Source: Candidatus Nomurabacteria bacterium RIFOXYD2_FULL_35_12 (GTDB lineage Bacteria > Patescibacteriota > Minisyncoccia > Phycocordibacterales > UBA9973). Taken from it: DNA of 35,039 bases. The stretch is from contig MFWK01000001.1 in the NCBI GenBank assembly GCA_001786365.1, positions 1-35,039 of the forward strand. Reading direction: 5' to 3'. Below the pieces are notes generated by a model that was given only the letters and a program-made list of their open reading frames with translations, did not search any database and was not told where the DNA came from. The position numbers were made by a program, and so were the translations under genes. Shown here in pieces: positions 3,822-32,787 of this stretch. Each line of letters begins with the position of its first letter. The stretch's first letter is position 1.

Positions 3822-3822
3822 T

Positions 3823-4350
3823 ATGAAAAATTTAGAAAATAAAATAGAACTAGCGAAGCCATCATTGGAACACAGAGACAGTTTTTTTGAAGCTGTTCGA
3901 GAATTTGAGGCTGAAGGGAAAAGTATTTATATGCATGGGGAGAAACCCAATGATGATTTTAACAAGGTTCTTGAAAAAATTAGAAATTATGAAAAGGGAA
4001 TAAATTTACCAGCAGATAGAGTTCCACAGACGGAATTGTGGCTGGTTGAAGGTAATAAATTTATCGGTTGGGTTAAGATTAGGCATCAGCTTAATGAAAA
4101 TTTACTTTTACAAGGTGGGCATATTGGTTATGCAATAAGGCCTTCGGAACGAAAAAAAGGTTATGGGACAAAGATTTTAGAATTAGCTTTATCTGTGGCG
4201 AAAAGTTTAGGAATAGAAAAAGCGTTATTGACTTGCGATGATGACAATTTTGGTTCGGGGAAAATTATAGAGAAAAATGGCGGTATTCTAGAAAATAAAG
4301 TAGATAACGATGGAAAACTTAAAAGGAGATATTGGATAGAGAATAAATAA
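3823..4350 (+). CDS. GNAT-family N-acetyltransferase
   Basis: Acetyl-CoA motif IRPSERKKGYGTKILELAL. Start moved to the internal ATG (MKNLENK...) so it does not overlap the preceding gene. Confidence 0.75.
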   Translation: MKNLENKIELAKPSLEHRDSFFEAVREFEAEGKSIYMHGEKPNDDFNKVLEKIRNYEKGINLPADRVPQTELWLVEGNKFIGWVKIRHQLNENLLLQGGHIGYAIRPSERKKGYGTKILELALSVAKSLGIEKALLTCDDDNFGSGKIIEKNGGILENKVDNDGKLKRRYWIENK

Positions 4351-4415
4351 AATAAAAGAACTTTATTAGCAACAAGATTTTCAAAATAATATTTTTAACG
4401 AAAATTACTTAATTA

Positions 4416-7069: not shown

Positions 7070-8444
7070 TTTTAAACAACAATTTAAAGGTAAAAAGATA
7101 ACTGTCATGGGGCTCGGGCTTTTGGGGCGGGGGTTGGGATATACAAAGTTTTTAGCGGAATGTGGAGCGGACTTGATTGTGACAGATTTAAAGACAAAAG
7201 AGCAATTGGCGACTTCAATAAAAAAATTAGAAAAATTTCCTAGTATTAAATTTGTTCTAGGTGAGCATAGACTGGAGGATTTTAGAAACAGAGACATGAT
7301 TATAAAGTCTGCTGGTGTTCCATTTGATTCTATCTATATTGCTGAAGCTAGAAAAAATAATATTCCTATAGAGATGGATGTTTCTTTGTTTGCAAAGCTT
7401 GCTCCAGATGTAATGATAATAGGAGTGACAGGCACAAGAGGGAAATCAATGACAACAGCCCTTATTTATGAAATTTTATCCGCCTACGTTAAAGCTTCGG
7501 CAGGACAAGAAAAAAAGTGGAAGGTTTATCTTGGTGGTAATGTCCGTGGAGTAGCAACGCTTCCACTTTTAGAAAAAGTACAGGCTGGAGATATTTTGGT
7601 TTGCGAGCTTGATTCTTGGCAGTTGCAAGGCTTTGGTGAGGCGAAAATTTCTCCACATATTTCCGTTTTTACTTCTTTTATGCCAGATCATATGAATTAT
7701 TATAAAGATGATATAAAAGCTTATTTTGCTGATAAAGCAAATATATTTAAATATCAAAAAAGTGAGGATATTTTGATAATTCGTCCAGATATGAAGGAAT
7801 TAATACCAGAATATTTTAAAAACCTGCCTGCCGGTAGGCAGGGTAAATTAATTGTTGTTAGTGCAAAAGATACAAAAAATTACGAATTTGTTGTGCCCGG
7901 AGAATATCAAAGAGAAAATTTGGCTTGTGCAGTTGCTGTAGCAGGAGAGTTTGGGGTGCCGGAAGAGTCTATTAAAAAAGCAGTTAGAAATTTCAAAGGT
8001 TTAGAAGGAAGATTGCAATATGTAAAAACAATTAAAGGCGTAAAGATATATAATGACAATAATGCGACAACTCCGGAAGCTACGATGGTGGGCATTGAAG
8101 CGCTAGTTTCCCCTAAGTCTGACTTAGAGGGCAAAAAAATTGTACTAATTTGTGGTGGAGCAGATAAGGGGCTTAAACTAGATAATTTTACAGAAGTTGT
8201 AGAAAAATATTGCAAAGCAGTGGTGTTGATTCCGGGGACGGGGACAGACATTCTGTCTAGTAGAAAGTTAAAAGTAGAAAGTTATAAAGTAAAAGATTTG
8301 AATGAAGCAGTTAAAACTGCGTTAGGTCTTGCCTCACGCGGTGATATAATACTATTTTCACCCGCCTTTGCGTCATTTGGAATGTTTAATAATGAATATG
8401 AGCGTAACGATTTATTTTTAGAAATAATTAAAGAGTTAAAATAA
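7062..8444 (+). CDS. murD: UDP-N-acetylmuramoylalanine--D-glutamate ligase
   Basis: GLGLLGRG N-terminal fold, GVTGTRGKS P-loop, NATTPEAT, GGADKG. Start set at ATG 7062 (MIDFKQQF...), an 8-nt overlap with the murE stop. The ORF-track start 7032 is inside murE. Confidence 0.9.
   Translation: MIDFKQQFKGKKITVMGLGLLGRGLGYTKFLAECGADLIVTDLKTKEQLATSIKKLEKFPSIKFVLGEHRLEDFRNRDMIIKSAGVPFDSIYIAEARKNNIPIEMDVSLFAKLAPDVMIIGVTGTRGKSMTTALIYEILSAYVKASAGQEKKWKVYLGGNVRGVATLPLLEKVQAGDILVCELDSWQLQGFGEAKISPHISVFTSFMPDHMNYYKDDIKAYFADKANIFKYQKSEDILIIRPDMKELIPEYFKNLPAGRQGKLIVVSAKDTKNYEFVVPGEYQRENLACAVAVAGEFGVPEESIKKAVRNFKGLEGRLQYVKTIKGVKIYNDNNATTPEATMVGIEALVSPKSDLEGKKIVLICGGADKGLKLDNFTEVVEKYCKAVVLIPGTGTDILSSRKLKVESYKVKDLNEAVKTALGLASRGDIILFSPAFASFGMFNNEYERNDLFLEIIKELK
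7822..7843 (+). repeat. G+C-rich palindrome, family C copy 1, in-frame in murD
   Basis: acctgcctgccggtaggcaggg. Translated LPAGRQG. Confidence 0.75.
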
Positions 8445-13513: not shown

Positions 13514-14140
13514 ATGATAATCACATATTTCGGCAAACAATTTTTCAAGATTCAAAAAGGGGACATGGTCCTTGCTTTTAACCCTGTCAGTAAAAGTTCA
13601 AAAACAGGCATAAATGCTCATTTCGGAGCTGACGTTGCTCTTGTGACCACTAATCATCCTGACTATAATGGAGTGGAACAGCTTTCCCATGGTGATCGAG
13701 TTCCTTTTGCTATTAACGGTCCGGGGGATTATGAAATAAAAGATGTTTTTATAAAAGGTGTATTGTCCGAGGCATCTTTGGCGGACAAAAAATATATCAA
13801 CACTATTTATATGTTCTCGGTAGACAATATTAATGTTGCATTTTTAGGAGCGTTATCAAATGTGGAAATTTCCAAAGAAGCTCATGAAGCTATAAATAGT
13901 CCAGACATTCTTTTTGTTCCAATCGGAGGCAAGGGTTTACTCGATCCAAAGTCTGCAGCAAAGTTTGCTCTTTCATTTGAACCAAAGATGATAATTCCGA
14001 TGGATTACGATGATTCATCTCTGAAAGTTTTCTTAAAAGAAATTGGAGAAGAAAAAGCCGAAGTCGTAGATAAATTGACGCTCAAATTAAAAGATTTGGA
14101 AGGCAAAGAAGGAGAAGTGGTCGTGCTTAAGAGTTTATAA
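13514..14140 (+). CDS. MBL-fold (UPF0173-like) protein with degenerate metal motif
   Basis: MIITYFGKQFFKIQ...DVALVTTNHPDYNG resembles the UPF0173 N-terminus, but the HxHxDH motif is not intact. Start chosen 7 nt after TGcTATAAT (13501-06). Confidence 0.4.
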   Translation: MIITYFGKQFFKIQKGDMVLAFNPVSKSSKTGINAHFGADVALVTTNHPDYNGVEQLSHGDRVPFAINGPGDYEIKDVFIKGVLSEASLADKKYINTIYMFSVDNINVAFLGALSNVEISKEAHEAINSPDILFVPIGGKGLLDPKSAAKFALSFEPKMIIPMDYDDSSLKVFLKEIGEEKAEVVDKLTLKLKDLEGKEGEVVVLKSL

Positions 14141-14168
14141 AGTTATAAAGTAAAAAGTTTATAAAGTC
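14132..14168 (+). promoter_or_regulatory. AAAGTT(T)AT tandem cassette abutting start codon
   Basis: agtttataaagttataaagtaaaaagtttataaagtc then ATG 14169. Fills the whole intergenic gap. Confidence 0.6.
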
Positions 14169-14402
14169 ATGAAAAAAATTATTTTAAATTTAAGAAGTCA
14201 GCCCGAACATGTTCGAAGAAATATTTTGCATGTTTTGACAGTTTTTTTTGCTGTCGCCTTATTGCTCATTTGGGTTTTTTCTTTAGGAACAAATTTGAGC
14301 AGTCCGGAAACTCAAGCAAAAATAAATAACGATTTGGAGCCATTTTCTGCATTAACAGCAAACATAGTCGACGGATATTATAGTATTACAGGATCCAATT
14401 AA
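14169..14402 (+). CDS. small membrane protein, hypothetical
   Basis: 77 aa with one TM helix (VLTVFFAVALLLIWVF). Confidence 0.45.
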   Translation: MKKIILNLRSQPEHVRRNILHVLTVFFAVALLLIWVFSLGTNLSSPETQAKINNDLEPFSALTANIVDGYYSITGSN

Positions 14403-17456: not shown

Positions 17457-18752
17457 ATGAAAAATTTTCAACTCATAACCGTAATCATATTTATCGCCCT
17501 GGCTATCTTTGGAGTTTTGGTTTTTTCTGGAGCTATACCTTTGGGGAATAATAATGCGCCAGGAAGCCTAGGAACTGTAGTTCTATGGGGAACGGTAAAG
17601 TCTGCTACTATTGCTCCAATTTTACAAGAGTTCAACACTGCCAATCCTACTTTTACAGTTAAATATGTACAAAAAGAAGCAGGAAGTTTTGATTTGGATT
17701 TGTTGGAGGCATTAGCTGGAGGCGTCGGTCCTGATTTGTTTTTCTTGCCTGACGATTTGGCTTTTCATTATTCTAATAAAATTTTCAAGATTCCATTTTC
17801 TAGCCTTTCGCTTGCTTCTTTTAAGAGTAATTTCGCTGGTGCAGGGGATGTGTTTTTGACCAGTACGGGCGCCTTGGCTTTTCCTTTATCTATTGACCCA
17901 CTTATGATGTATTACAATAGGAGCATTCTTGACTCTAGTGGAGTCGTTTCTCCGCCAGTTTTCTGGGATGATTTAGTCGGCCTCGCGTCAAAACTTACAA
18001 AAAAAGATGATACAAATAAAATAATAAAAAGCGCAGTTGCTTTGGGGCACTTTTCCAATGTGAATAATGCCAAAGATATTTTGTCCGCTCTTTTAATGCA
18101 GACGGGAAACCCTATTGTAGTAGAAAAAGACGGAATTTTTGATTCTAGTTTGAATACCAGTACTTTCAATCCAAAATATGACCTCGGTTCAATTTTGAGA
18201 TTCTATACGGATTTTGCCGATCCAAACAAAGAAGTTTATTCTTGGAATAAATCGTTTCCGAATTCTAGTGATGCTTTTTCAGCGGAGAATTTAGCATTAT
18301 ATTTTGGTTTTGCTAGCGAACTACCTTCTCTTGTGAATAAAAATCCAAATCAAAACTTGGGAGTTACTTCATTTCCTCAAATTAAAAATTCTAATTTCAA
18401 ATCAACTATGGCTCATGTGACGGGCATAGCTATCTTATCTTCTTCAAAAAACTTTAACACAGCCTTTACTGCAGCGAGTCTGCTTTCTTCCGGCAATTTT
18501 GCTTCCAAGTTCGCAATTGCGACAGGCACAGCACCTGCGCGTAGAGATTTGTTAAATGTAAAACAGTCCAATGCTTATTCTCCGATTTTCTATAATTCAG
18601 CTCTCTTTGGAAAGAGTTGGCTTGATCCATCACAAAAAGACACAGACAACATCTTCCGAAATATGATAGATGGAGTACTTTCAAACAATATGACTGTAGA
18701 GAGTGCCATTTCCGACGCTAGTAGTAAGTTGGGATTACTTTTGTTAAAGTAG
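17457..18752 (+). CDS. membrane-anchored extracellular solute-binding protein (ABC-type, family 1-like)
   Basis: N-terminal TM anchor. Size and periplasmic-binding-protein-like pattern (VVLWGT..., DLFFLPDD..., YYNR). No partner permease or ATPase in the window. Confidence 0.5.
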   Translation: MKNFQLITVIIFIALAIFGVLVFSGAIPLGNNNAPGSLGTVVLWGTVKSATIAPILQEFNTANPTFTVKYVQKEAGSFDLDLLEALAGGVGPDLFFLPDDLAFHYSNKIFKIPFSSLSLASFKSNFAGAGDVFLTSTGALAFPLSIDPLMMYYNRSILDSSGVVSPPVFWDDLVGLASKLTKKDDTNKIIKSAVALGHFSNVNNAKDILSALLMQTGNPIVVEKDGIFDSSLNTSTFNPKYDLGSILRFYTDFADPNKEVYSWNKSFPNSSDAFSAENLALYFGFASELPSLVNKNPNQNLGVTSFPQIKNSNFKSTMAHVTGIAILSSSKNFNTAFTAASLLSSGNFASKFAIATGTAPARRDLLNVKQSNAYSPIFYNSALFGKSWLDPSQKDTDNIFRNMIDGVLSNNMTVESAISDASSKLGLLLLK

Positions 18753-18755
18753 TAG

Positions 18756-18787
18756 AAAGTTTATAAAGTTTATAAAGTTATAAAGTA
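18756..18787 (+). promoter_or_regulatory. AAAGTT(T)AT tandem cassette
   Basis: aaagtttataaagtttataaagttataaagta then ATG 18788. Confidence 0.6.
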
Positions 18788-19162
18788 ATGCAAAAAATTA
18801 AAAAATTCGTGATTTTACTTTCAATACTTTTTATGCCAGTTGTTTCTCTTGCAGAAAATTTTGTTTTAATACCTTGCAAGGGTGCTGATTGTGATTTTAA
18901 TGGTTTAATGGCTCTTATAAATAATGTAATTCATTTTGTGCTCTTTTATATGGCTGTTCCTATCGCCGCTATTATGTTCTTTTATGCTGGTTTTATGATG
19001 GTGACTTCAGCAGGTAGTTCGGAAAGCAAGACTAAAGCCAAAAATATTTTTTCTAGTGCTGTTTATGGGCTTGTCATTGTGGCAGCCGCTTGGCTCATTG
19101 TTAGGACTATATTATCAATCTTGGGCTATGAAGGGGCTTGGATATTTAATAATTTTAAATAA
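18788..19162 (+). CDS. TrbC/VirB2-like pilin-like protein 1
   Basis: Signal peptide, Cys pair (CKGADC), TM1, short charged loop (SAGSSESKTKAK), TM2. Confidence 0.7.
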   Translation: MQKIKKFVILLSILFMPVVSLAENFVLIPCKGADCDFNGLMALINNVIHFVLFYMAVPIAAIMFFYAGFMMVTSAGSSESKTKAKNIFSSAVYGLVIVAAAWLIVRTILSILGYEGAWIFNNFK

Positions 19163-19178
19163 GGTGTATAATATAATC

Positions 19179-19556
19179 ATGAATTTCATAAAAAAGAGTT
19201 GGTCCAAATTGGTTTTATTGTCTTATGCTTTTTTTATACCTATTATTTCCTTTGCTCAAAATGAGCAGATATCTCCAAATAATCCTTGCACTGCAGGTAA
19301 GATTTGTAACCCAATAAAAACAGATACAATCAATGACTTAATCAAAACTCTCTTAGAGGGAGTTTTGAAAGTGGGTATACCTATCGTTGCTTTGGCTATT
19401 ATTTATTGTGGTTTTCTTTTTGTGTCTGCTCAGGGTAATACAGAAAAATTAACTGAAGCAAAAAAATCTCTTACATATACTTTGATCGGCGCAGCGATAT
19501 TATTAGGTTCATGGGCTATTGCACAGCTTATATCAAACACTGTGCTCGCGCTTTGA
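19179..19556 (+). CDS. TrbC/VirB2-like pilin-like protein 2
   Basis: Same architecture (CTAGKIC; loop SAQGNTEKLTEAKK). Start moved to MNFIKK..., which gives a signal peptide. The ORF-track start 19056 overlaps the upstream gene. Confidence 0.7.
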   Translation: MNFIKKSWSKLVLLSYAFFIPIISFAQNEQISPNNPCTAGKICNPIKTDTINDLIKTLLEGVLKVGIPIVALAIIYCGFLFVSAQGNTEKLTEAKKSLTYTLIGAAILLGSWAIAQLISNTVLAL

Positions 19557-19560
19557 GCAA

Positions 19561-19596
19561 GTAAAAAGTTTATAAAGTTCGTAAAGTTATAAAGTA
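19561..19596 (+). promoter_or_regulatory. AAAGTT(T)AT tandem cassette
   Basis: gtaaaaagtttataaagttcgtaaagttataaagta then ATG 19597. Confidence 0.6.
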
Positions 19597-20370
19597 ATGA
19601 AAAAAATAAAAAAATACGCAATATCTATTTTAATAATCTTCGCACTCATTGGGGTTTTTAGTCCAGTGGTTCAGATTAGTGCAGATTCATTACAAACATT
19701 TGAGCAATCGCAGGATTACCCACCAAGTTATTATGCAAATAATCAACCTTCATCATCCACCTGTACTGCTTTAACCGGCGTGCAAAGTGTGATATGTAAA
19801 GTAAATGAAATAGTTGGTTCAATAGTCCCTGTTTTGATTGCTTTAGGATTAGTATATTTTGTCTGGGGAGTAATTCAGTATATGATAGGCACCGAAGAAG
19901 AGACTAAAAAGGGCGGAAAAGGGAAAATAATTTATGGCATTATCGGTTTGGCTGTTATTGTTGGTGTTTGGGGATTAGTAAATATTTTAAAAACTACTTT
20001 TGTTAATTCAGAAAATCTTTCTGCGCCTACTCTTTCGACTATAACTACAGTTGGGACGAGTGCTAGTTGTGATATTACTAAAACTTCAAAATTTCAAGAC
20101 GTTTTGTGTTATGTTACTAAAATCATCAATAATTCTATCATTCCTCTCATTTTTGCTCTTGCTCTAGCTATGTTTGTCTGGGGTGTGGTACAGTTTGTTT
20201 TGAATAGCGATGAAGAGGTGAAGAAAGAAAAAGGAAGGCAGTTTATGCTTTGGGGGATTATAGCTTTGACGGTGATGATTTCTGTATGGGGTTTGGTGGC
20301 AATATTAGGTGACACCTTTAAGATTAAGACCAATGTCCTTCCGCAAGTTCAACCACCTACAACACGCTAG
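19597..20370 (+). CDS. TrbC/VirB2-like pilin-like protein 3 (internally duplicated, two modules)
   Basis: Two consecutive Cys...Cys / TM / WGV(I/V)Q(Y/F) / acidic-basic loop / TM modules. Confidence 0.7.
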   Translation: MKKIKKYAISILIIFALIGVFSPVVQISADSLQTFEQSQDYPPSYYANNQPSSSTCTALTGVQSVICKVNEIVGSIVPVLIALGLVYFVWGVIQYMIGTEEETKKGGKGKIIYGIIGLAVIVGVWGLVNILKTTFVNSENLSAPTLSTITTVGTSASCDITKTSKFQDVLCYVTKIINNSIIPLIFALALAMFVWGVVQFVLNSDEEVKKEKGRQFMLWGIIALTVMISVWGLVAILGDTFKIKTNVLPQVQPPTTR

Positions 20371-20437
20371 ATTGCATTTGTTTTTATGATACAATTAAAA
20401 GATATTATTATTAGTTATTATTAGGTCGGATTATTAG

Positions 20438-20473
20438 TAAAAAGTTATAAAGTTTATAAAGTTATAAAGTAAA
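20438..20473 (+). promoter_or_regulatory. AAAGTT(T)AT tandem cassette
   Basis: gtaaaaagttataaagtttataaagttataaagtaa, 3 nt before ATG 20477. Confidence 0.6.
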
Positions 20474-20476
20474 TTT

Positions 20477-20881
20477 ATGAAAAAGAAATTAATTGTTTTA
20501 TCAGGTTTTGTTTTAGGTTTAGCTCCTGTCGTGGCTTTAGCACAAGGTACAGTCGGAGGTTGCGCTGGAATCATTACGGGTGGGGATCAAACACTTGTAA
20601 CGGTAATTTGTAAGGTAAATCAAATTATAGGTGTTATCGTCCCAGTTTTGATTGCTTTGGGTGTTGCTTACTTTATCTGGGGTGTCATCCAGTATGTAAT
20701 AGGAACTGATGCGGAGGCAAAATCGTCAGCCATAAATAAGATTATTTACGGCATTATCGGTTTAGCCGTTATAGTTGCTGTTTGGGGACTTGTGCAAATC
20801 TTAACTAGAACTTTCGGAGTTGATAATCCGACAGCAGTTCCTCTTCCGGGTGTTCCTGGTTTTAATGGTTCTGTTCGATAA
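20477..20881 (+). CDS. TrbC/VirB2-like pilin-like protein 4
   Basis: Very close to module 1 of protein 3 (ICKVNQIIGVIVPVLIALG..YFIWGVIQYVIGT...IIYGIIGLAVIV.VWGLV). Confidence 0.75.
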   Translation: MKKKLIVLSGFVLGLAPVVALAQGTVGGCAGIITGGDQTLVTVICKVNQIIGVIVPVLIALGVAYFIWGVIQYVIGTDAEAKSSAINKIIYGIIGLAVIVAVWGLVQILTRTFGVDNPTAVPLPGVPGFNGSVR

Positions 20882-20886
20882 AAATG

Positions 20887-20952
20887 AATCTAGTTAGAGG
20901 TTTACTTACTGGAGTCATTGTTGAAGATTATTAATTTTAATTTCTAAGCGGG
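20887..20952 (+). promoter_or_regulatory. degenerate copy of the CCCGTTAGAA...TTCTAAACGGG leader element
   Basis: 5' aatctagttagagg (20887-20900) and 3' atttctaagcggg (20940-20952), immediately before ATG 20953. Confidence 0.4.
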
Positions 20953-21309
20953 ATGGATTTATTCTCTACAAAAATAGTTTATGGGGCTCAGTCCTTAAAT
21001 CAGTTTATAGCAAATGTTGATAGGGAAATCATAAACCCTCTTATATTATTTCTTTTTGCCCTTGCTTTGGTTTATTTTCTTTATGGACTGTTTGAATTTA
21101 TAGCAAATGGAGCAAATGATGAGAAAAAAACGACGGGGAAGAGTCATATGCTTTGGGGCGTTGTAGGGCTAACCATTATGATGGGTGTTTGGTTTATCCT
21201 AGGAGTAATAATGAGCACCTTCAATATAGAGGGAATAAAGCCAGAAACAGGGGACGTGGAATTGCCTGAATATGTTGCACCTAGTACGAATGGTTTAAGA
21301 CAGAATTAG
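20953..21309 (+). CDS. TrbC/VirB2-like pilin-like protein 5 (no obvious signal peptide)
   Basis: TM / charged loop (NGANDEKKTTGKSH) / TM with MLWGVVGLTIMMGVW, as in module 2 of protein 3. Confidence 0.6.
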   Translation: MDLFSTKIVYGAQSLNQFIANVDREIINPLILFLFALALVYFLYGLFEFIANGANDEKKTTGKSHMLWGVVGLTIMMGVWFILGVIMSTFNIEGIKPETGDVELPEYVAPSTNGLRQN

Positions 21310-21323
21310 TGAGTAAAAAGAAG

Positions 21324-21361
21324 AAAAGGCGGTCGTTCACGAGGAACGGTCCGCCCTTTTC
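21324..21361. terminator. bidirectional terminator at the AT/GC boundary
   Basis: AAAAGGCGGTCGTTC-acgag-GAACGGTCCGCCCTTTT between convergent genes. Confidence 0.7.
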
Positions 21362-21433
21362 TTGTATTGGTCAACAACTTTGTGCTCAGCCAATACGATA
21401 CTAACTGATCCATTTTGCGCTGGTGTCGGGCGC

Positions 21434-22306
21434 TCATCGCACTTTTTGCACGATGACTTTTTTATACACTCGCACCCTGACTGGATGCAGGGGGTCCGGA
21501 GAAACAAACTCTGCTTCGCCGGGCCTGAATGTTTCAGGGGTTGCAGTTCCTTCCCCTTTTCCAGATATTTCTACCCAATTGCAATTGTTATACTTGATTC
21601 GCAATGGGTAGCCATCTGACCGGACCACACATCCCCATCCTACGAAACCACTGCAGGGTGTGTATTTTTCGAACACTTTTTCCAGCATTTCAACCATCTC
21701 TACTTTTTGCTGGACGATGCGTTGTGTTGCTGGTGCCGTAACTGCCGGTGGTGGTTTGTTCCAGCGCTTACCTTGCCAGAACGTGCCAAGTGCATCCCAC
21801 AACGCACCGCCCACTCCTTTTTCTTCCAGGATGGCTCTGGCTTCATCCCGATTCGCCCACGTGGCGGTGTATTTTGGGAACCCCAGCTGGAGGATGAGGA
21901 GGGTGAAGACAACTCCGAGAGCTACTATCACCATTCCACGCTTTTGCTTGATCCAGGCGAACGCAAGCCCGCCTGCAATCAAGGCTGCAATGAGCCCCCA
22001 GATGAACAAAAGCTCTTGGTCCTTTTCTCCTACTGGCCCCAGCGCTCTTTCGATGACACCGAGACTTTTTTGGAGAATGTAGAATATCACGACAGCTATC
22101 GCGAATACTCCAGCTTTTTGGATGCCTTCCAATGCAGTTGTGACTCCATCCTTCACTTGTTTCCAGACTGAGAAGCCTAGATAGAGTGCCATGACGACCC
22201 AGAAGGTCGTAAAGAAGGGAGTTTCCCACAGTGCCTTTAACGCAGCACTGATTGCGATGGCTAAACCGAGTAAGCCTAGCCATGGTTGGTTTATTATGTT
22301 GTTCAT
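21434..22306 (-). CDS. polytopic membrane protein (about 5 TM) with Cys-containing C-terminal soluble domain, no family recognised; G+C-rich
   Basis: 290-codon ORF. TM helices separated by charged loops. ATGA overlap with the upstream ORF. Codon usage is foreign to the flanks. Confidence 0.7.
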   Translation of the reverse strand: MNNIINQPWLGLLGLAIAISAALKALWETPFFTTFWVVMALYLGFSVWKQVKDGVTTALEGIQKAGVFAIAVVIFYILQKSLGVIERALGPVGEKDQELLFIWGLIAALIAGGLAFAWIKQKRGMVIVALGVVFTLLILQLGFPKYTATWANRDEARAILEEKGVGGALWDALGTFWQGKRWNKPPPAVTAPATQRIVQQKVEMVEMLEKVFEKYTPCSGFVGWGCVVRSDGYPLRIKYNNCNWVEISGKGEGTATPETFRPGEAEFVSPDPLHPVRVRVYKKVIVQKVR

Positions 22307-23061
22307 GATTTTTTGAATCCCTTGAATACATTGACGATGGCGTCTTTAATGAACTCAGCTGCTACACTGAGCCACAAGACCTCCATTTCCGTCACTTTGT
22401 CTTTTTCTTTGCTTGCTCCAGTGCCAGTTGTTGTAGAGGCTAGTTTTGCTTTCGCTTTTGCCTCTGCTTTTTTTTCTGCCTCTTCCCACCATCTTCCAAC
22501 ATTGTCCTTAAACGCAAGAAGCAACAGTGGAAGAAGTGCAGCGACCATCCAAAAGGCCGCCTTGCTCCAGAACCAACTCTTCACTGGTTTTGTTGTTGTG
22601 GTTGTGGTCGGAGGATCACGGAGATATTCTGCGATTCCCGTGAATATGGGTTTCAAAATGGTGAGCCCACCATCAGAAGCCTGAATAACCAACCCCTTGG
22701 TTGGCTTCCACACAGACTCAACGACACCCCCTTTTTCAGGGAGGAGAAGTCCTGGTCCCCATCCGTATTGGAGAGCGATGAGGCAGGTAACCACTGTGCT
22801 GGCGAAGAAGATAAACCACCATGTGTCCTCGCCACCTTTTCGGAATAATGCCCAGAAGGCATCTTTTCCACCAAACAGACGAATGGTTCCTGCCCCTACC
22901 AGGAGGCAGATGGTGATCCATCCGATGAACGGGATCCAAAACCCCGAACTAACGAATGTCGTGATTCCTGTCCAATTCTTCACAATGAGGAAGAGGGACA
23001 ACACGGCAAGCAACACGAAGCATATTATTGTTTTGCCTTTCATGTTTTCTTTCTTGCACAT
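22303..23061 (-). CDS. polytopic membrane protein (about 4 TM) with Thr-run and Lys/Ala/Glu-rich tail, no family recognised; G+C-rich
   Basis: 252-codon ORF, first gene of a 2-gene unit behind promoter P3. The alternative start MKGKT... is 6 codons in. Confidence 0.65.
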   Translation of the reverse strand: MCKKENMKGKTIICFVLLAVLSLFLIVKNWTGITTFVSSGFWIPFIGWITICLLVGAGTIRLFGGKDAFWALFRKGGEDTWWFIFFASTVVTCLIALQYGWGPGLLLPEKGGVVESVWKPTKGLVIQASDGGLTILKPIFTGIAEYLRDPPTTTTTTKPVKSWFWSKAAFWMVAALLPLLLLAFKDNVGRWWEEAEKKAEAKAKAKLASTTTGTGASKEKDKVTEMEVLWLSVAAEFIKDAIVNVFKGFKKS

Positions 23062-23075
23062 TTAAGTGCAGATGC

Positions 23076-23095
23076 GTTCCGATTTACATCGGAAC
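23076..23095 (-). other. 5'-UTR stem-loop with GUAA tetraloop
   Basis: GTTCCGAT-gtaa-ATCGGAAC on the minus strand, between P3 and ATG 23061. Confidence 0.55.
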
Positions 23096-23127
23096 TGGTT
23101 TATGAACTTGTCAAAGAGTACGTGTAT

Positions 23128-23157
23128 ATTATATCACACTAATACTTGTTTTGTCAA
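23128..23157 (-). promoter_or_regulatory. promoter P3 (consensus hexamers)
   Basis: Minus strand: TTGACA (23157-23152), 18-nt spacer, TATAAT (23133-23128). Confidence 0.65.
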
Positions 23158-23159
23158 GC

Positions 23160-23190
23160 AAAAAAGCTCCTTAAAATAAGGAGCTTTTTT
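23160..23190. terminator. intrinsic terminator after the 164-aa gene
   Basis: AAAAAAGCTCCTTA-aaa-TAAGGAGCTTTTTT. Confidence 0.85.
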
Positions 23191-23207
23191 GGAAATTTTA
23201 TTACTGA

Positions 23208-23702
23208 TTAGCTGTGTTTAAGTGGAGTTGATTGATACTTTTCAGCACCGCCATAAATCCTTCTTACCAAGACAACTATAAACAAAATTAATATTGCAAC
23301 TATTACCCATTGAATCAATCTTGAAGGAATAAAACTATTTGATCCAAAAACTGCGTTGGCTGCGAGGTTGCTGTTATTTCCAGTGTTTGCATTATTTACA
23401 GATGTGTTTGTGGAATTAGTAGTAGTTGTTTTAGTAGTTGTAGTATTTGAATCTGTAGTATTTGTTTTTACAACCGGTACTGTTTCGTAAGTATTAACAT
23501 ACACAGGGGTAGGGTTGTATTGATTATAATTTTCAGAAGAAATATTTCCTCCACTTACAACATATCCACCATTTCCAACATATCCACCACCATAATACTG
23601 CGCGTTCGTTTTTGATGGTATCATTATCACTCCAAGAGACAAAATGGCTAAAATTACTAAGCTAAAAACGATATTATATTTTATTGTATTTATATTTTTC
23701 AT
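23208..23702 (-). CDS. secreted, C-terminally TM-anchored Gly-motif / Thr-Asn-rich protein
   Basis: Signal peptide (...PSKTNA-QY), YYGGGYVGNGGYVVSGGN motif, T/N-rich stalk, C-terminal TM helix. AT-rich codons. Confidence 0.7.
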   Translation of the reverse strand: MKNINTIKYNIVFSLVILAILSLGVIMIPSKTNAQYYGGGYVGNGGYVVSGGNISSENYNQYNPTPVYVNTYETVPVVKTNTTDSNTTTTKTTTTNSTNTSVNNANTGNNSNLAANAVFGSNSFIPSRLIQWVIVAILILFIVVLVRRIYGGAEKYQSTPLKHS

Positions 23703-23703
23703 C

Positions 23704-23804
23704 CCGTTTAGAAATCATCCCATCTATACATATTATATTTACATAAAGATAGGTAATTTATTGTTATTTTGTAACATTTTCCCGTTATGTAAATTTCTAA
23801 CGGG
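23704..23804 (-). promoter_or_regulatory. closed leader element CCCGTTAGAAAT...ATTTCTAAACGGG-ATG
   Basis: Minus-strand 5' arm 23804-23793 is complementary to the 3' arm 23716-23704, which abuts the start codon. The 5' arm can alternatively form the local hairpin CCCGTTA/TAACGGG (23781-23804). Confidence 0.55.
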
Positions 23805-23819
23805 ATTCATAACATAGAT

Positions 23820-23848
23820 AGTATAGCATATTCAGATGTAAATGTCAA
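23820..23848 (-). promoter_or_regulatory. promoter P2 (consensus -35)
   Basis: Minus strand: TTGACA (23848-23843), 17-nt spacer, TATACT (23825-23820). The 32-nt block is 30/32 identical to P1. Confidence 0.7.
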
Positions 23849-23851
23849 GAG

Positions 23852-23893
23852 AAAAGGCGCCTTTCTGCATGGTTAGCAAATTGGCGCCCTTTT
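23852..23893 (-). terminator. terminator after the lipoprotein-like gene
   Basis: Minus strand: AAAAGGGCGCC, 20-nt loop, GGCGCCTTTTCTCTT, running straight into the -35 of P2. Confidence 0.55.
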
Positions 23894-23919
23894 CGATTTC
23901 GTTGATGTGTTTTGACGTG

Positions 23920-24369
23920 TTAGTAACGTCGGCGGAAGCCACTACCTCCACTGACGACGAATCCACCGTTACCGACGAACCCTCCTCCGCCGTTTCCTCC
24001 ACAATATTGTGGAGGGTGGGACGGTGGATAATACCTACCGCCGTATTGTTTTTGCCAAGCGTAACCTGCGTTCCAAGTTGGCCGACTGTTGGCCTGAACC
24101 TGCACAGTGCCGACCTTCTCGGCGACTTGCAGCTTGTGTCGCTGTATCCCTTCATTGACTGCGAGGCCTGACTTCACTTCCGACTCGGTGTGGGTCGTTA
24201 CCCGACCGTCCGGTCCTATGTCGGTCGTGGTTTTTGTGACCGTTGCCTTCTCGCCTTCTATGTAGGGGAGCGGGCCGGTCTTCTGAGCGATGGCCGTGTT
24301 TCCATTAAAGGCGCAACCTTGCGTCAATGCCAAAACTGCTACTGCGATTATGATACTCACTGTTTTCAT
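23920..24369 (-). CDS. secreted lipoprotein-like Gly-motif protein; G+C-rich
   Basis: Good SD (AAAGGAGAC, 7 nt upstream). Signal peptide ending LALTQGC (lipobox-like, not canonical). C-terminal CGGNGGGGFVGNGGFVVSGGSGFRRRY. Confidence 0.7.
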   Translation of the reverse strand: MKTVSIIIAVAVLALTQGCAFNGNTAIAQKTGPLPYIEGEKATVTKTTTDIGPDGRVTTHTESEVKSGLAVNEGIQRHKLQVAEKVGTVQVQANSRPTWNAGYAWQKQYGGRYYPPSHPPQYCGGNGGGGFVGNGGFVVSGGSGFRRRY

Positions 24370-24398
24370 TGTCTGTCTCCTTTGTTGTTATTGTTGTT

Positions 24399-24450
24399 CC
24401 TGCGTGATAGTAACTTAGAAAATCAATTTTCTAAACTATTATCACACAGG
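24399..24450 (-). other. 24-bp imperfect hairpin in the 5' UTR
   Basis: Minus-strand RNA CCUGUGUGAUAAUAGUUUAGAAAA-UUGA-UUUUCUAAGUUACUAUCACGCAGG. 20 Watson-Crick pairs, 3 G-U pairs and 1 mismatch. The wobbles only work on the minus strand. Confidence 0.6.
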
Positions 24451-24496
24451 AAAGCAAGGAAAATGTAGAAAGAACAATATATCTATTACTTTTAAT

Positions 24497-24525
24497 AGTA
24501 TAGCATATTCATATGTAAAAGTCAA
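24497..24525 (-). promoter_or_regulatory. promoter P1
   Basis: Minus strand: TTGACT (24525-24520), 17-nt spacer, TATACT (24502-24497). Confidence 0.7.
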
Positions 24526-24561
24526 GGACTATTTTAGCCTTTAAAATATGGGTATTTTTTG

Positions 24562-24643
24562 TGGGCAAGGGGGGACTCGAACCCCCACCCCTTACGGGAT
24601 CAGTTCCTAAGACTGAAGCGGCTACCAATTACGCCACTTGCCC
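24562..24643 (-). tRNA. tRNA-Leu (anticodon TAG)
   Basis: rc reads GGGCAAGTGGCGTAATTGGTAG...TCAGT-CTTAGGA-ACTGA, long variable arm, GGGGG-TTCGAGT-CCCCC, CTTGCCC-A. Confidence 0.9.
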
Positions 24644-24844
24644 AAGATATTTTGCACGTTCCTACTTTGTGGTCACAAGTATTTTTCTACTGAAAAATCT
24701 CGCGACCCCGTCTCGGCATCGTCATGCCTATGGCTCGCACAAAATTTTGTGGTCAGGAATATTTTGCTCGTCGACACTCACAAAATTTCACGATCCTGCC
24801 TCGGTTGTTTTTTTGCAGAAAAAACATACCTCCGGCTCGCCCTA

Positions 24845-24880
24845 GTCAGAAAAATTAAAAGCAGTTTTAATTTTTCTGAC
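24845..24880. other. perfect 16-bp hairpin between tRNA-Lys and tRNA-Leu
   Basis: GTCAGAAAAATTAAAA-gcag-TTTTAATTTTTCTGAC. Confidence 0.7.
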
Positions 24881-24884
24881 CTAG

Positions 24885-24957
24885 TGCGCCCACCAGGGAT
24901 CGAACCTGGGACATTCTCCTTAAGAGGGAGCTACTCTACCAGCTGAGTTATGGGCGC
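24885..24957 (-). tRNA. tRNA-Lys (anticodon CTT)
   Basis: rc reads GCGCCCATAACTCAGCTGGTAGAGTA-GCTCC-CTCTTAA-GGAGA-ATGTC-CCAGG-TTCGATC-CCTGG-TGGGCGC-A. Confidence 0.9.
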
Positions 24958-24976
24958 ATATATTTATTCAGTTGTG

Positions 24977-25058
24977 TGCCCGAGGTGGGAATCGAACCCA
25001 CATCCCTTACGGGACACCATTTTAAGTGGTGCGCGTATACCAATTCCGCCACTCGGGC
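24977..25058 (-). tRNA. tRNA-Leu (anticodon TAA)
   Basis: rc reads GCCCGAGTGGCGGAATTGGTA...CACCA-CTTAAAA-TGGTG, long variable arm, GTGGG-TTCGATT-CCCAC, CTCGGGC-A. Confidence 0.9.
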
Positions 25059-25090
25059 ATTTCCTAAAAATATCTTAACATTTTTTAGGG

Positions 25091-25162
25091 AGGCCTGGGG
25101 CGGAATTGAACCGCCGTATATTCCTTTTGCAGAGGAATGCCTTACCACTTGGCTACCAGGCC
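25091..25162 (-). tRNA. tRNA-Cys (anticodon GCA)
   Basis: rc reads GGCCTGGTAGCCAAGTGGTAAGGCA-TTCCT-CTGCAAA-AGGAA-...GGCGG-TTCAATT-CCGCC-CCAGGCC-T. Confidence 0.9.
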
Positions 25163-25174
25163 TTAATCAATATC

Positions 25175-25523: not shown

Positions 25524-27047
25524 TTATTTTTGGGCTATGGAAAATAATTCTATGACGTCACCGGAAGCGACTTCTATTTTTGATTCGAGCATCATACCAA
25601 ATTCTAAACCTTCTTCTACAGTGCTAGTTTTTACTTTACTTTTTTCCAGATTTACGATTTTTCCTCGTCCTATTTCAAATTCTCGGCGCATTATTTTTAC
25701 TGTTCCATTTAAAAGCATTTGGCCTTCGATTACTTTTCCGCCGATTATCTGGCGTTCTTTTGTGCGACTAAAAGCTCGGATTATCTTTGCTCGTCCTGTG
25801 GTTTCTACTGTTTCCACTCTGGGTCTTCTTTTTTCCATTTCTTCTTCGAGCCATTCAGTCATTTTGTAAATGATATCAAAGAAAGAGATGGAAATATTTC
25901 TTTTTTTAGCAATTTCTTCAGCGCTCTTGTCGGCTTTTACGTTGAATCCGATGATGATTGCATTTTCACCATCTGAAATATTTTTTATATCTGATTCGGA
26001 AATCGGGCCCACACCTTTTGTTATAATTTTAAATTCTGCATTTTCTACTTTTCCTTGGCATTTTATTTTTGCTATTTCTTTTTCTATAGCTTCCAAGGAA
26101 CCAGAAACATCGGCTTTGAGCAATATGGGTATTAACTTTTTTCCTGTTTCATCAGAGCTTTTTGTATTTGTATTTTTTATTTCTTTTCCTTTAAAACATT
26201 CCATGTATTCCAAAGCATCTTTTTTATTTTTAAAAGTCTTAAAAGGTGCTCCGACTCTAGGCAATTTATCAAAACCACAAAGGCGGATAGGGGAAGAGAA
26301 AGAAGCATTCTCTATCATTTTTCCTTTAAAATCTTGAATTATGCGGGTAGAAGTTGTACTGTCTTCCACAACTACAGTCATACCTTTTTTTATTGTGCCA
26401 TTTTTTATAAGCAAAGTGGCTTGGATTCCGCGTTTTGAATCTAGGTCTGCTTCTATGACGAAACCTGAAGCATCTTCTTCGGTATTTCCGGTAAAGTTTT
26501 CCATTTCGGATAAAATCAAAATTAAAGACAAGAGATTATCTACACCTGTGCCTGTTTTTGCGGAAATTTCCACATAAGGAATTTTGCCTCCATAATTTTC
26601 TAGATAAACTTCATTTTCTGCCAGTTCATTTTTTGTTTTTTCTATATTTGCATTTGGCTTGTCTATTTTATTTATAGCCACAATAGAAGGTATCTTTGTT
26701 TCAACAATTGTTTTCCATGCTTCAACTGTTTGCGGTTTTACTCCGTCTTCGGCGGAAACAATCAAGATGGCAATGTCGGCAATGAGTGCTCCTCGTTCAC
26801 GCATTTTAGAAAAAGCTGCATGTCCGGGTGTGTCCAAGAATGTGATTTTTTTGTCTTTTCCTTCTTCGTCTTTATGTATAACTTCATAAGCGGAAATATT
26901 TTGAGTAATTCCTCCGGCTTCATTTTCGGTGACATTCGTTTTTCTGATATAGTCGAGAAGGGTGGACTTGCCATGGTCAATATGTCCCATAATTACTACG
27001 ACAGGCGGGCGAGTTATTTTATTTTCTTTTTGTCTTTTTTCTTGCAT
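25524..27047 (-). CDS. infB: translation initiation factor IF-2 (short N-terminus)
   Basis: VVVIMGHIDHGKSTLLD, DTPGHAAF, NKIDK. IF-2 domain order. Confidence 0.95.
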   Translation of the reverse strand: MQEKRQKENKITRPPVVVIMGHIDHGKSTLLDYIRKTNVTENEAGGITQNISAYEVIHKDEEGKDKKITFLDTPGHAAFSKMRERGALIADIAILIVSAEDGVKPQTVEAWKTIVETKIPSIVAINKIDKPNANIEKTKNELAENEVYLENYGGKIPYVEISAKTGTGVDNLLSLILILSEMENFTGNTEEDASGFVIEADLDSKRGIQATLLIKNGTIKKGMTVVVEDSTTSTRIIQDFKGKMIENASFSSPIRLCGFDKLPRVGAPFKTFKNKKDALEYMECFKGKEIKNTNTKSSDETGKKLIPILLKADVSGSLEAIEKEIAKIKCQGKVENAEFKIITKGVGPISESDIKNISDGENAIIIGFNVKADKSAEEIAKKRNISISFFDIIYKMTEWLEEEMEKRRPRVETVETTGRAKIIRAFSRTKERQIIGGKVIEGQMLLNGTVKIMRREFEIGRGKIVNLEKSKVKTSTVEEGLEFGMMLESKIEVASGDVIELFSIAQK

Positions 27048-27082
27048 TTTACTTTATAACTTTCTACTTTATGAACTTTTAA
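27048..27082 (-). promoter_or_regulatory. AAAGTT(T)AT tandem cassette (minus strand) before infB
   Basis: rc reads gtttaaaagttcataaagtagaaagttataaagtaaa then ATG. Fills the gap between the DUF4446-like stop and the infB start. Confidence 0.55.
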
Positions 27083-27083
27083 A

Positions 27084-27551
27084 CTATTTCACTTCTGCTT
27101 TCTTTAAGGCCTCTTTTTCTTCAGTACTTAATTCGTATTCTGATTTGTTGTTTTTAATAGGCTTGGCAAAGATGCTCATCCTTTCACGGGAATATAAACT
27201 GGAGAGGACTACGCCACTACCTTCTTCATCCAGCATTCCGATAGCGAAACTTTGGTTACTACCTTGATCGGAAAATGGATTGAAACGTATGGTTTCAAGT
27301 CCTCGAATGCTTTTTTTGAGTTTATTATTTATCACAACTACATCTTTTTGAATATTTTCTTTTGCCTTTTTTAAATCAACGATGTCTTTTTCTAAACTTA
27401 CAATTGTGTCTTCCAAGTCTTTTGCTTTTTTACCGAGGAAAAATCTTTTTAAGCGTTTTTCTGTGATAATAGCCCAGATAATACCTAAAAGAATGAGGAA
27501 AGTGGTTATTCCGCTAAAAATAAAAAAAGCAACTTCAAGCTTTGTATTCAT
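27084..27551 (-). CDS. DUF4446-like membrane-anchored coiled-coil protein
   Basis: N-terminal TM, coiled coil, then RFNPFSDQGSNQSFAIGMLDEEGSGVVLSSLYSRE, as I recall for DUF4446. Confidence 0.5.
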   Translation of the reverse strand: MNTKLEVAFFIFSGITTFLILLGIIWAIITEKRLKRFFLGKKAKDLEDTIVSLEKDIVDLKKAKENIQKDVVVINNKLKKSIRGLETIRFNPFSDQGSNQSFAIGMLDEEGSGVVLSSLYSRERMSIFAKPIKNNKSEYELSTEEKEALKKAEVK

Positions 27552-32505: not shown

Positions 32506-32588
32506 GCGTCGATGGTAGAGTGGTCAAATACGACACGCTGTAAACGTGTTGCCTTCGGGCTTCGGGGGTTCGAATCCCTCTCGACGCA
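32506..32588 (+). tRNA. tRNA-Tyr (anticodon GTA)
   Basis: GCGTCGA...ACACG-CTGTAAA-CGTGT, long variable arm TGCCTTCGGGCTTC, GGGGG-TTCGAAT-CCCTC, TCGACGC-A. Confidence 0.9.
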
Positions 32589-32592
32589 CAAA

Positions 32593-32628: not shown

Positions 32629-32769
32629 TTATGTCTCGTCGTAAGCAAGCGAACTGCTTCGCTTGCGTGGGGGATTCGAACGACGGAATATAAATTTTCA
32701 GTAGAAAATTTTATGAGTCGGTGCCCAGACAAAGTTTTGCGACGGTAAAACTTTAGTCGAGGGAGAAAT

Positions 32770-32787
32770 TCCCTCTCGACGCACAAA
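32770..32787 (+). repeat. 18-nt duplicate of the tRNA-Tyr 3' end (T-stem plus acceptor plus 4 nt)
   Basis: tccctctcgacgcacaaa is identical to 32575-32592. It is preceded by a T-arm-like GAGGG-AGAAATT-CCCTC. Confidence 0.8.

Follow-up and report, generated by a model that had tools for sequence, protein, structure and literature searches.

A conserved Nomurabacteria locus between a tRNA cluster and a pilin array as a candidate expression site for exchangeable GC-rich surface cassettes

A module of four genes lies between a tRNA cluster and a pilin array in a 35,039-nucleotide (nt) stretch of Candidatus Nomurabacteria bacterium RIFOXYD2_FULL_35_12, one of a group of tiny groundwater bacteria (MFWK01000001.1, positions 1-35,039 of the forward strand; this whole stretch is called the window). 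Three of the genes are GC-rich: gene 1, which encodes a 149-amino-acid (aa) lipoprotein-like protein, and the genes of a 252-aa and a 290-aa membrane protein. The fourth, encoding a 164-aa membrane protein, is AT-rich and serves here as the anchor gene. Comparison of the window with related loci from public records (given as L-numbers: L006, L007, L012, L047 etc.) revealed that the module is a lineage-conserved locus of Nomurabacteria/Paceibacterota and that its high G+C is a maintained equilibrium, not the fading mark of a foreign origin. We lean towards the view that the locus is an expression site for exchangeable surface cassettes whose GC content is maintained.

An earlier note, made by eye from the sequence, had described two G+C-rich segments amid AT-rich flanks, with long open reading frames (ORFs) stacked in several frames, and computation confirmed both. 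Sliding GC was 0.46-0.53 across ~21.35-23.0 kb and 0.55-0.56 across ~23.9-24.35 kb, against ~0.30-0.37 in the flanks and in the stretch at 23.0-23.9 kb. GC at third codon positions (GC3), computed per gene, was 0.522 for the 290-aa gene, 0.514 for the 252-aa gene and 0.560 for gene 1 (overall GC 0.549), against 0.18-0.36 for the other 29 genes of the window, among them the 164-aa gene at 0.218. Thus, GC and GC3 both differ from the flanks, and GC1, GC2 and GC3 are all raised in the GC-rich genes. The note had also called the intergenic pieces and the 164-aa gene AT-rich. This holds for the intergenic pieces of the module (GC 0.28-0.33), except for the spacer 3' of the 290-aa gene (0.48).

GC-rich patches within AT-rich genomes are frequently RNA genes, several ORFs overlap in the region, and automatic calls chose the wrong frame for gene 1 in L006 and L007. 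The mosaic might thus be an artefact, either of a chimeric contig or of GC-rich structured RNA genes misread as ORFs. The chance of this is virtually nil, and the assembly, conservation and fold results already refute it. The exact 290-aa protein is recorded in 54 blocks of the public collection, and the window matches five independent assemblies (ENA, JGI, groundwater) at >99.9% identity, with all four junctions the same. The mosaic is therefore not an assembly chimera, which the earlier note had asked to be excluded. Structured RNA in place of genes was likewise rejected, since there was no Rfam match at either threshold and conservation is strong at the protein level (E = 3e-92 to P0002; dN/dS 0.37). 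In addition, a Shine-Dalgarno (SD) sequence is followed by a signal peptide or lipobox, and AlphaFold2 (AF2) gave a confident fold. From dN/dS values of 0.37-0.39 and this fold model we conclude that these are real genes, on which purifying selection is somewhat relaxed.

Word-indexed relatives of the 290-aa protein number only two, one of which, L007, lies on a fully syntenic contig (ClpB, aminotransferase, DUF4446, IF-2, RbfA, tRNAs, the four-gene module, pilin array, SBP, methyltransferase, GyrA). The earlier note had proposed a synteny search for relatives lacking the module; there too it was found between tRNA cluster and pilin array. The alternation of GC-rich, AT-rich and GC-rich DNA recurs in L007, in the short contig L006 and in L008, L010/L011, L012 and L044, and the GC-rich genes of the second slot in syntenic loci are not always homologous. 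In most of 35 loci anchored on the 164-aa family, the family gene does not depart from background GC, and the 1-2.5 kb after it are raised by 0.10 to 0.25 in GC; five further loci, found via the C-terminal domain of the 290-aa protein, behave likewise. Family GC3 exceeded the background in 17 of the 17 loci with enough flank (mean 0.614 versus 0.399; Wilcoxon p = 1.5e-5), and cassette GC correlated with host GC (r = 0.63, p = 0.007). Within 0.45 Mb of related loci, 31 of the 32 GC-rich ORFs lay within -2.5/+4.5 kb of the anchor gene. Counted among non-overlapping ORFs of the 35 anchored loci, 31 of 325 were GC-rich near the anchor versus 1 of 218 farther away (Fisher p = 1e-6).

If the high GC were a remnant of foreign DNA, it should decay. 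Substitutions between the window and its close relative L047, polarised with L012 as outgroup, were balanced, with 17 GC>AT versus 18 AT>GC changes in total and 12 versus 11 at third positions. Under neutral decay toward the host value (GC3 0.27), a ratio of ~2.7:1 would be expected, which was rejected (p = 0.002). Because the polarised changes are balanced, the high GC is an equilibrium that is being maintained.

The sequences that carry this composition are hypervariable. Between the window and L007, protein identity is 95% for GyrA and S1, 93% for ClpB, 85% for IF-2 and 65-82% for the pilins. Within the module it falls to 66% for the 164-aa protein, 32% for the 290-aa protein and 29% for the 252-aa protein, and gene 1 is unalignable. 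Even gene content differs among relatives, the slot being filled by the 252- and 290-aa pair, by an SPFH protein with a 137-aa protein, or by a single 160-aa protein. Signs of exchange are of two kinds. The anchor gene of the window resembles that of L007 more than that of L012 (76% versus 65%), whereas its cassettes are closer to those of L012 (55-59% versus 27-41%). The cassette tree thus conflicts with the neighbouring anchor gene, which indicates that cassettes were exchanged between lineages. Furthermore, codon ~42 of the 252-aa gene divides the comparison of window and L047 DNA: upstream of it identity is ~82%, with gaps, and from there on 94.9%. This puts a recombination breakpoint within the locus. 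Two features of a hypervariable cassette locus, divergent alleles between conserved flanks and exchange between lineages, were therefore both found. Neither repeats of the GC-rich segments nor a reverse transcriptase among the encoded proteins, as expected for a silent-cassette donor or a diversity-generating retroelement, were detected in the window.

In agreement with the earlier note, which took the products for envelope or secreted proteins of no recognisable family, the module encodes signal peptides, Cys residues, transmembrane (TM) anchors and polytopic proteins, and none of the four proteins gave a match above threshold in Pfam, NCBIfam, PHROGs or PADLOC, known toxin, immunity and defence families included, which speaks neither for nor against an undescribed system such as the bacteriocin/immunity pair that the note had suggested. 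In the 290-aa protein, a helical scaffold of five TM segments with the motifs WxxIxAxxAGG and LQLGFPKYTATWANRDE is joined through a Pro-rich linker to a C-terminal β-sandwich domain (TPCSGFVGW...PLRIKY...PGEAEFVSPD...VRVRVY) with three Cys. In an exhaustive hidden Markov model (HMM) search of 1.84 billion representatives, 124 relatives with two architectures were found. The long form (~290 aa) has the five-TM scaffold with an invariant FPKYTATW block and the short form (130-200 aa) a single TM helix; in both, a Pro-rich linker leads to a terminal β-domain of ~100 aa. At least three unrelated-looking types of C-terminal domain occur on one scaffold, and the same domains are also found behind the single TM helix. 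The long form is partnered by the 252-aa polytopic protein, the short form by a weak SPFH/Band_7 protein.

AF2 modelled the full 290-aa protein with a mean predicted local distance difference test score (pLDDT) of 81 and a C-domain pLDDT of 90-98; the C-domain alone reached a pLDDT of 89.8 and a predicted template-modelling score (pTM) of 0.73. Foldseek searches of PDB and BFVD with full and domain models gave no significant structural neighbour, the best resemblance being to a generic jelly-roll/β-sandwich (TM-score 0.47, E = 0.08, below significance). A sequence profile search of PDB gave nothing significant (a weak F-like pilin match, E = 0.059). That the scaffold is pilin-like was rejected as well (hhalign probability against the local pilins 0.8%, no Pfam pilin hit to PF18895/PF04956).

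The 252-aa protein has ~4 TM segments, a loop of ~60 aa and a charged C-terminal helix rich in Glu, Ala and Lys. Its true start is probably the ATG at 23043, its relatives form three clusters only (5.8 billion searched), and dN/dS versus L047 is 0.37 for its gene and 0.39 for the 164-aa gene. The 164-aa protein begins with a signal or anchor, carries a GGYV motif and a stalk rich in Asn and Thr, and ends in a conserved block (SNLAANAxFGSNSFxPSxLIQW, a TM helix and RRIYGGxEKYxxTPLKH). A GTDB scan with patterns of the 290-aa family found nothing, and two alignments were too diverse for search patterns; the alignment of the 164-aa family (19 homologues) worked in their place and located the family in the genomes of 31 GTDB species, which with few exceptions carry the label Nomurabacteria or Paceibacterota. 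Gene 1 ends in a Gly/Tyr-rich tail that includes GGGFVGNGGFVVSGG. Aligned with lipoproteins that follow the leader in L017, L027, L035 and L042, it shows 27-35% identity and an invariant Cys, whereas the lipoproteins in its place in L007 and L012, with much Gly, Tyr and Pro, can barely be aligned. By these sequence features gene 1 belongs to a loose family of Gly/Tyr-rich lipoproteins. Public gene calls in this segment are in the wrong frame or strand (L006 2-313; L007 8303-8518; the true lipoprotein frames are L007 8170-8496 and L012 6217-6516), and the family is therefore under-represented in protein databases. The 290-aa scaffold and its C-domain, the 252-aa partner, the 164-aa anchor and the gene-1 lipoproteins are new protein families without known relative. 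The strongly positive TM4-TM5 loop, the Cys pairs, the Pro-rich linker and the variability suggest that the β-domain faces outward (extracytoplasmic). Likewise, the lipobox, the TM topology, the Cys-containing β-domain after the Pro-rich linker and the variability suggest that the module products are exposed at the cell surface.

The variable genes are embedded in conserved expression signals (Table 1). As the earlier note had it, near-consensus sigma-70 hexamers precede the three minus-strand units, each with an extended -10 TG; terminator hairpins and the ATGA overlap that joins the 252- and 290-aa genes are also present. P1 and P2 share a stretch of 32 nt (94% identical), a P1-type promoter also stands 5' of the leader in L017, L031, L035 and L042, P2 is conserved nearly base for base in L007 and L012 (alignment), and P3 is conserved in L007, L012 and L047. 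The note's structured 5' untranslated region (UTR) for every unit stands for P1 and P3, whereas the P2 leader is long only here, through an insertion of 108 nt. This insertion is bordered by a duplication of ATGAA and by imperfect inverted ends (TCCCGTTAGAAAT / ATTTCTAAACGGGA), giving it the look of a miniature inverted-repeat transposable element (MITE). It is missing from L007 and L012, where the P2 mRNA is nearly leaderless; in the window it adds a short upstream ORF. The P3 leader forms two hairpins, GTTCCGATGTAAATCGGAAC and TGCACTTAAATGTGCA. The second has a covarying stem, with TGCAC/GTGCA in the window against TGCGC/GCGCA in L047, and L007 and L012 also keep a hairpin.

The leader of gene 1 is a newly defined conserved leader RNA of ~120 nt without a match to an Rfam family. 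A pyrimidine tract (GUUCUUUCUA..UUUCCUU) is followed by a hairpin of ~60 nt with a conserved GAUAAUAG arm, an A-rich spacer, one or two GCAGGA motifs (one near the SD) and the SD itself. A covariance model found nine sense copies in eight genomes, with compensatory changes in 9 of 23 stem pairs. Eight of the nine copies sit between a near-consensus promoter and a GC-rich lipoprotein gene or another secreted or membrane-anchored gene. A further copy of the leader arm at 27453-27482 was dismissed as chance, being antisense within the DUF4446 gene. The arrangement of the GCAGGA motifs is reminiscent of CsrA-type sites, or of an anti-SD or stabiliser element.

Table 1. Features of the module and its surroundings. 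Positions refer to the window unless an L-number is given.
Feature	Position	Strand	Remarks
tRNA-Leu(TAG)	24561..24643	-	ARAGORN, Rfam; abuts P1; first of the four-tRNA cluster
tRNA clusters	24561-25163; L007 7452-7948; L008 5913-7846; L010 6253-7287; L012 4931-5516		
Promoter P1	24497..24525	-	TTGACT, 17-nt spacer, TATACT, extended -10 TG; 10/12 consensus positions
Gene-1 structured 5' leader	24370..24492	-	conserved RNA, covariance model
Leader copies elsewhere	L007 8049-8172; L012 6089-6212; L017 694-813; L025 91-201; L031 6085-6203; L035 364-497; L042 5626-5738 and 6805-6932		
Gene 1, 149-aa lipoprotein-like	23920..24369	-	GC-rich; signal peptide ending LTQGC
Gene-1 terminator hairpin	23849..23894	-	aaaagggcgcc...ggcgccttttc, read from sequence
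Promoter P2	23820..23848	-	TTGACA, 17-nt spacer, TATACT, TG; 11/12
108-nt insertion, P2 to 164-aa start codon	23698..23810	-	alignment; limits ambiguous by 5 nt
164-aa membrane protein, conserved anchor gene	23208..23702	-	AT-rich
Bidirectional terminator hairpin after 164-aa gene	23159..23191	.	15-pair stem, then T-run
Promoter P3	23128..23157	-	TTGACA, 18-nt spacer, TATAAT, TG; 12/12
P3 leader, two hairpins	23044..23127	-	covariation
252-aa polytopic membrane protein	22303..23061	-	GC-rich
290-aa protein	21434..22306	-	GC-rich; ATGA overlap with 252-aa gene
C-terminal variable β-sandwich domain	21446..21697	-	residues ~204-287; AF2
GC-elevated non-coding spacer	21310..21433	.	GC 0.484; terminator hairpin ~21318-21360 shared with convergent pilin gene
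Five VirB2-like (PF18895) pilin genes, type IV secretion system (T4SS) type	18788..21309	+	Pfam; host-like composition
AAAGTTTATAAAGTTATAAAGT motif sites	18751-18831; 19560-19640; 20427-20515; 14132-14173; 8271-8294; 27047-27070		

Taken together, the results give the following picture. Three strong sigma-70-type promoters, the conserved AT-rich leaders and the AT-rich 164-aa anchor gene form a fixed frame, and GC-rich units, reaching from start codon to terminator, slot between these fixed pieces. Unit 1 is a fast-evolving lipoprotein. Unit 2 pairs a polytopic (elsewhere SPFH-like) partner with a membrane-anchored protein that ends in a small, swappable β-sandwich domain. Cassette divergence far outpaces that of the rest of the genome, with swaps between related lineages. 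As the mechanism we propose that exchange proceeds by homologous recombination in the conserved frame. G+C would be upheld by a recombination-linked force, that is by GC-biased heteroduplex repair or by more efficient selection for G/C, and a preference for C over U in codons would be superimposed. With its β-domain outward, the module may serve surface recognition or adhesion at the interface with a partner cell, host or phage, possibly together with the pilus.

The earlier note had instead read the module as a compositionally foreign island acquired at a tRNA. It was right that tRNA-Leu(TAG) adjoins while integrase and transposase are missing; domain searches of the window proteins found no integrase, recombinase or transposase. 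However, the island reading itself found no support, as the syntenic module with the same mosaic recurs in relatives, lacks integrase and attachment (att) site and shows no decay. The tRNA-Leu 3' end occurs only once in the window (up to 3 mismatches allowed), no repeat flanks the GC-rich region there, and for want of att site and integrase an integrative element was rejected. An empty site was not seen, the module being at the same place in L007 (GyrA 95% identical) and in dozens of species, far more distant ones among them. Of the proposed horizontal acquisition, exchange remains real to some extent (tree discord, a mosaic relative), and acquisition as a foreign island is not supported. The note's further caveat, that homology to ordinary families of the lineage would speak against it, came close to applying; the families are conserved and typical of Nomurabacteria, though not housekeeping.

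A variant close to the note's view is that each lineage took its cassettes recently and independently from an unseen GC-rich donor, be it a host bacterium, a GC-rich relative within the Candidate Phyla Radiation (CPR) or a plasmid or phage. The composition does deviate at all codon positions and in the 3' spacer, as in imported DNA, the varying slot content and the discordant cassette tree would fit, and the adjoining tRNA cluster is rearranged. In every syntenic relative the locus is bordered by the same four tRNA genes (Leu-TAG, Lys-CTT, Leu-TAA, Cys-GCA), which in L007, L008, L010 and L012 are shuffled in order and orientation. L008 holds second copies of tRNA-Cys and tRNA-Leu(TAG). Together, these differences and copies indicate repeated local inversion and duplication. 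Yet the exhaustive HMM search returned 124 relatives only, all of the >40 contexts examined are the same Nomurabacteria-type locus beside a pilin array, and no relatives were found in phage, plasmid and viral collections (two viral-contig scans; tblastn against phages and plasmids). Moreover, cassette GC scales with host GC and does not decay toward it, integrase and att site are lacking, and promoters and leaders are host-like, the GC shift beginning at the start codon. Repeated import is thus already weakened, and we consider it very improbable.

Which force keeps the cassettes GC-rich? The shift is mainly from T to C at third positions (T3 from 0.36 to 0.17, C3 from 0.12 to 0.29), with a smaller rise of G3. 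Codons switch strongly to TTC, ATC, AAC, TAC, CAC, GAC and TGC, U is depleted in 4-fold families (GCT from 0.41 to 0.16, GTT from 0.40 to 0.17), and amino-acid usage moves from FYMINK toward GARP residues. The 3' spacer lies 0.077 above locus GC versus 0.006 for other convergent spacers (18 loci, p = 0.004). The 5' leaders are not raised (GC 0.30-0.40), so the switch in composition falls at the start codon. The rise of GC1 and GC2, the amino-acid shift and the GC-elevated 3' spacer point to a force that works at the nucleotide level over the whole unit, start codon to terminator. The rise of GC in non-coding DNA along with synonymous sites, a feature of GC-biased gene conversion (gBGC), was thus found for the 3' spacer, though not for the 5' leaders. 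We favour a recombination-linked, GC-favouring force (biased repair, or more effective G/C selection) combined with a C-over-U codon preference.

Alternatively, the cassettes may encode some of the most abundant envelope proteins and owe their G+C to selection at the transcript level, which would favour a stable mRNA, codons that end in C and are read by G34 tRNAs, and a lower number of AU-rich sites for RNase or termination, without any special role of recombination. Near-perfect extended -10 promoters, structured leaders, strong SD sequences and terminators would suit such genes, as would the codon switch itself and a GC shift that begins at the start codon, yet includes the transcribed 3' UTR. 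S1 and IF-2 of the same genome shift weakly in the same pyrimidine direction (third-position C/(C+T) 0.46 and 0.40, versus ~0.22), which suggests a component of codon selection. Highly expressed genes in general combine a C bias in 2- and 3-fold codons with a U bias in 4-fold families (PMC7374057). Here the C bias is found, but the 4-fold families are depleted of U. In addition, S1 and IF-2 lose G3 (0.12 and 0.09), while the GC-rich genes gain it (0.23-0.25). The 164-aa gene, with an equally strong promoter, stays at a pyrimidine ratio of 0.23 and GC3 0.22, the pilin genes, whose products are probably abundant, keep host-like codon usage (GC3 0.26-0.33), and amino-acid usage is shifted too. 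The U depletion, the G3 gain and the unshifted 164-aa gene led us to reject plain translational optimisation as the sole cause, and we give selection for expression as the whole explanation a minority chance.

Several points also weigh against the cassette-exchange reading that we favour. To our knowledge, the GC3 shift of +0.2 to +0.3 far exceeds reported recombination-linked GC effects in bacteria. The 164-aa gene lies in the same recombining region behind a strong promoter and is nevertheless AT-rich, with GC3 below the genome average, so any regional force must stop sharply at the cassette borders. The shift is also strand-asymmetric (T3>C3 larger than A3>G3), which pure repair bias does not predict and which indicates some selection on transcript or codons. 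Effect size, sharp borders and strand asymmetry are thus not explained by a recombination-linked force. Furthermore, the signs of recombination are qualitative only, and the available strains are clonal, which makes polymorphism uninformative. The polarisation is based on 35 changes and a distant outgroup, and the background gene sets in related loci are ORF-based approximations. Outward topology and recognition function are read from sequence features only, and the module runs convergently to the pilin genes instead of sharing their transcript.

Hypervariable surface loci that are exchanged between conserved flanks are known from the O-antigen (rfb) and capsule loci of enterobacteria and from the S-layer cassette of Clostridioides difficile. 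The locus described here resembles them in its fixed position, conserved flanks, divergent or non-homologous alleles in close relatives, tree discord with neighbours, putative surface products and persistently deviant base composition. In contrast to the AT-rich rfb-type loci, the deviation here is upward, GC-rich within an AT-rich genome. At 0.5-1.7 kb the cassettes are tiny, and what they encode is proteins rather than sugar pathways; there are two slots split by a conserved AT-rich gene; and the families, which have no known relative, belong to uncultured CPR bacteria. A second likeness concerns SPFH (stomatin/flotillin-type) proteins, which pair with NfeD-type partners in operons. In the short-form relatives a weak SPFH/Band_7 protein (18.5 bits in L008 and 23.5 bits in L044, versus a Pfam cutoff of 23.6) precedes a protein with TM anchor and β-domain, and the charged C-terminal helix of the 252-aa protein is also SPFH-like. 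However, the 252-aa protein of the window has no Band_7 match in Pfam, and the β-domain has no NfeD match in Pfam or among the top Foldseek matches.

For recombination-associated GC enrichment in bacteria, Lassalle et al. (2015) reportedly put forward the gBGC hypothesis. As in such enrichment, GC is higher here where recombination is evident, at synonymous and non-coding sites, and against AT-biased mutation; the larger magnitude, the sharp borders at gene scale and the strand asymmetry are different. Across bacteria in general, recombination and GC are positively linked, and selection rather than gBGC has been argued to explain such links (PMC11879095).

The pilin array is the fixed neighbour of the module and is kept in all syntenic loci. 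In 30 of 32 loci (30 of 30 evaluable, the other two being contig ends), the C-domain gene and the array's last gene converge, 65-244 nt apart or, in L013, with a 6-nt overlap. VirB2-like pilin arrays are a described feature of Patescibacteria, and their essentiality has been reported for one Patescibacterium in culture; the paper knows of no adhesin for the T4SS-like pilus systems of this group and does not mention the module proteins (PMC12102498). The arrays described there and those studied here have the same genomes and neighbourhood and 5-6 divergent PF18895 pilin genes in common. The module differs in that its proteins are not pilins, are encoded convergently to the array by GC-rich genes and are far more variable. 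It is conceivable, although improbable in our judgement, that the cassettes are the missing contact or host-recognition parts of the T4SS-like pilus, with the β-domain setting partner specificity and the composition held by an unusually strong GC-favouring process, confined to the locus and tied to cassette exchange. If true, no sharper natural example of GC maintenance linked to recombination would be known from a bacterium. A more extreme variant would have the genes adapted to being expressed, once transferred, by a host cell of higher GC; it has no support.

The surroundings of the locus vary in some relatives. In L012 (GCA_023267175.1, a metagenome-assembled genome (MAG) from NCBI), restriction/defence-type genes (EcoRI-type methylase, GmrSD/HNH, EMARD) replace IF-2 and RbfA at 367-4363, before the tRNA cluster, so some lineages depart from the fixed frame on the tRNA side. 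A Y1 (IS200/IS605-type) transposase lies between methyltransferase and gyrA in L007 (15303-15929) and L044 (5594-6220) and is not there in the window. The locus also occurs in MAGs titled 'uncultured Candidatus Saccharibacteria bacterium' (L015, L016, L017, L018, L024, L032, L037, L038, L043). Since it is otherwise confined to records labelled Nomurabacteria/Paceibacterota, these labels may be wrong.

Apart from the module, the window encodes SecA, three Mur ligases, S1, GyrA, IF-2, RbfA, ClpB and BipA. Two pairs of GC-rich palindromic repeats of 50-52 nt, 90-92% identical, lie inside coding regions: 1478-1527/3044-3093, both within secA, and 3417-3468/28629-28680, near the 3' ends of secA and of the aminotransferase gene. 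By analogy, they may be small in-frame palindromic elements comparable to the Rickettsia palindromic elements. The AAAGTTTATAAAGTTATAAAGT motif recurs directly 5' of start codons (three pilin genes, gyrA and others). It differs from the TTGACA/TATAAT promoters of the module and may serve as a promoter or translation-initiation signal specific to the lineage. Finally, the 3' end of tRNA-Tyr (32562-32592) has a 31-nt partial copy, 81% identical, 195 nt downstream (32757-32787), which may be the remnant of an old integration site.

We found no earlier description in the literature of this locus or of GC heterogeneity in these bacteria. Atypical G+C beside a tRNA gene is usually read as recent acquisition; here it is an old, maintained property of a locus across a lineage. 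Within 3 kb, GC-rich cassettes of 0.5-1.7 kb alternate with AT-rich leaders and an AT-rich gene, and they do so in many species of varied genomic G+C. The locus thus offers a compact natural test case for the debate on whether biased repair or selection links GC to recombination. Moreover, because its proteins are fixed beside pilin arrays, reported as essential for one Patescibacterium in culture (PMC12102498), they are candidate cell-contact proteins of epibionts.

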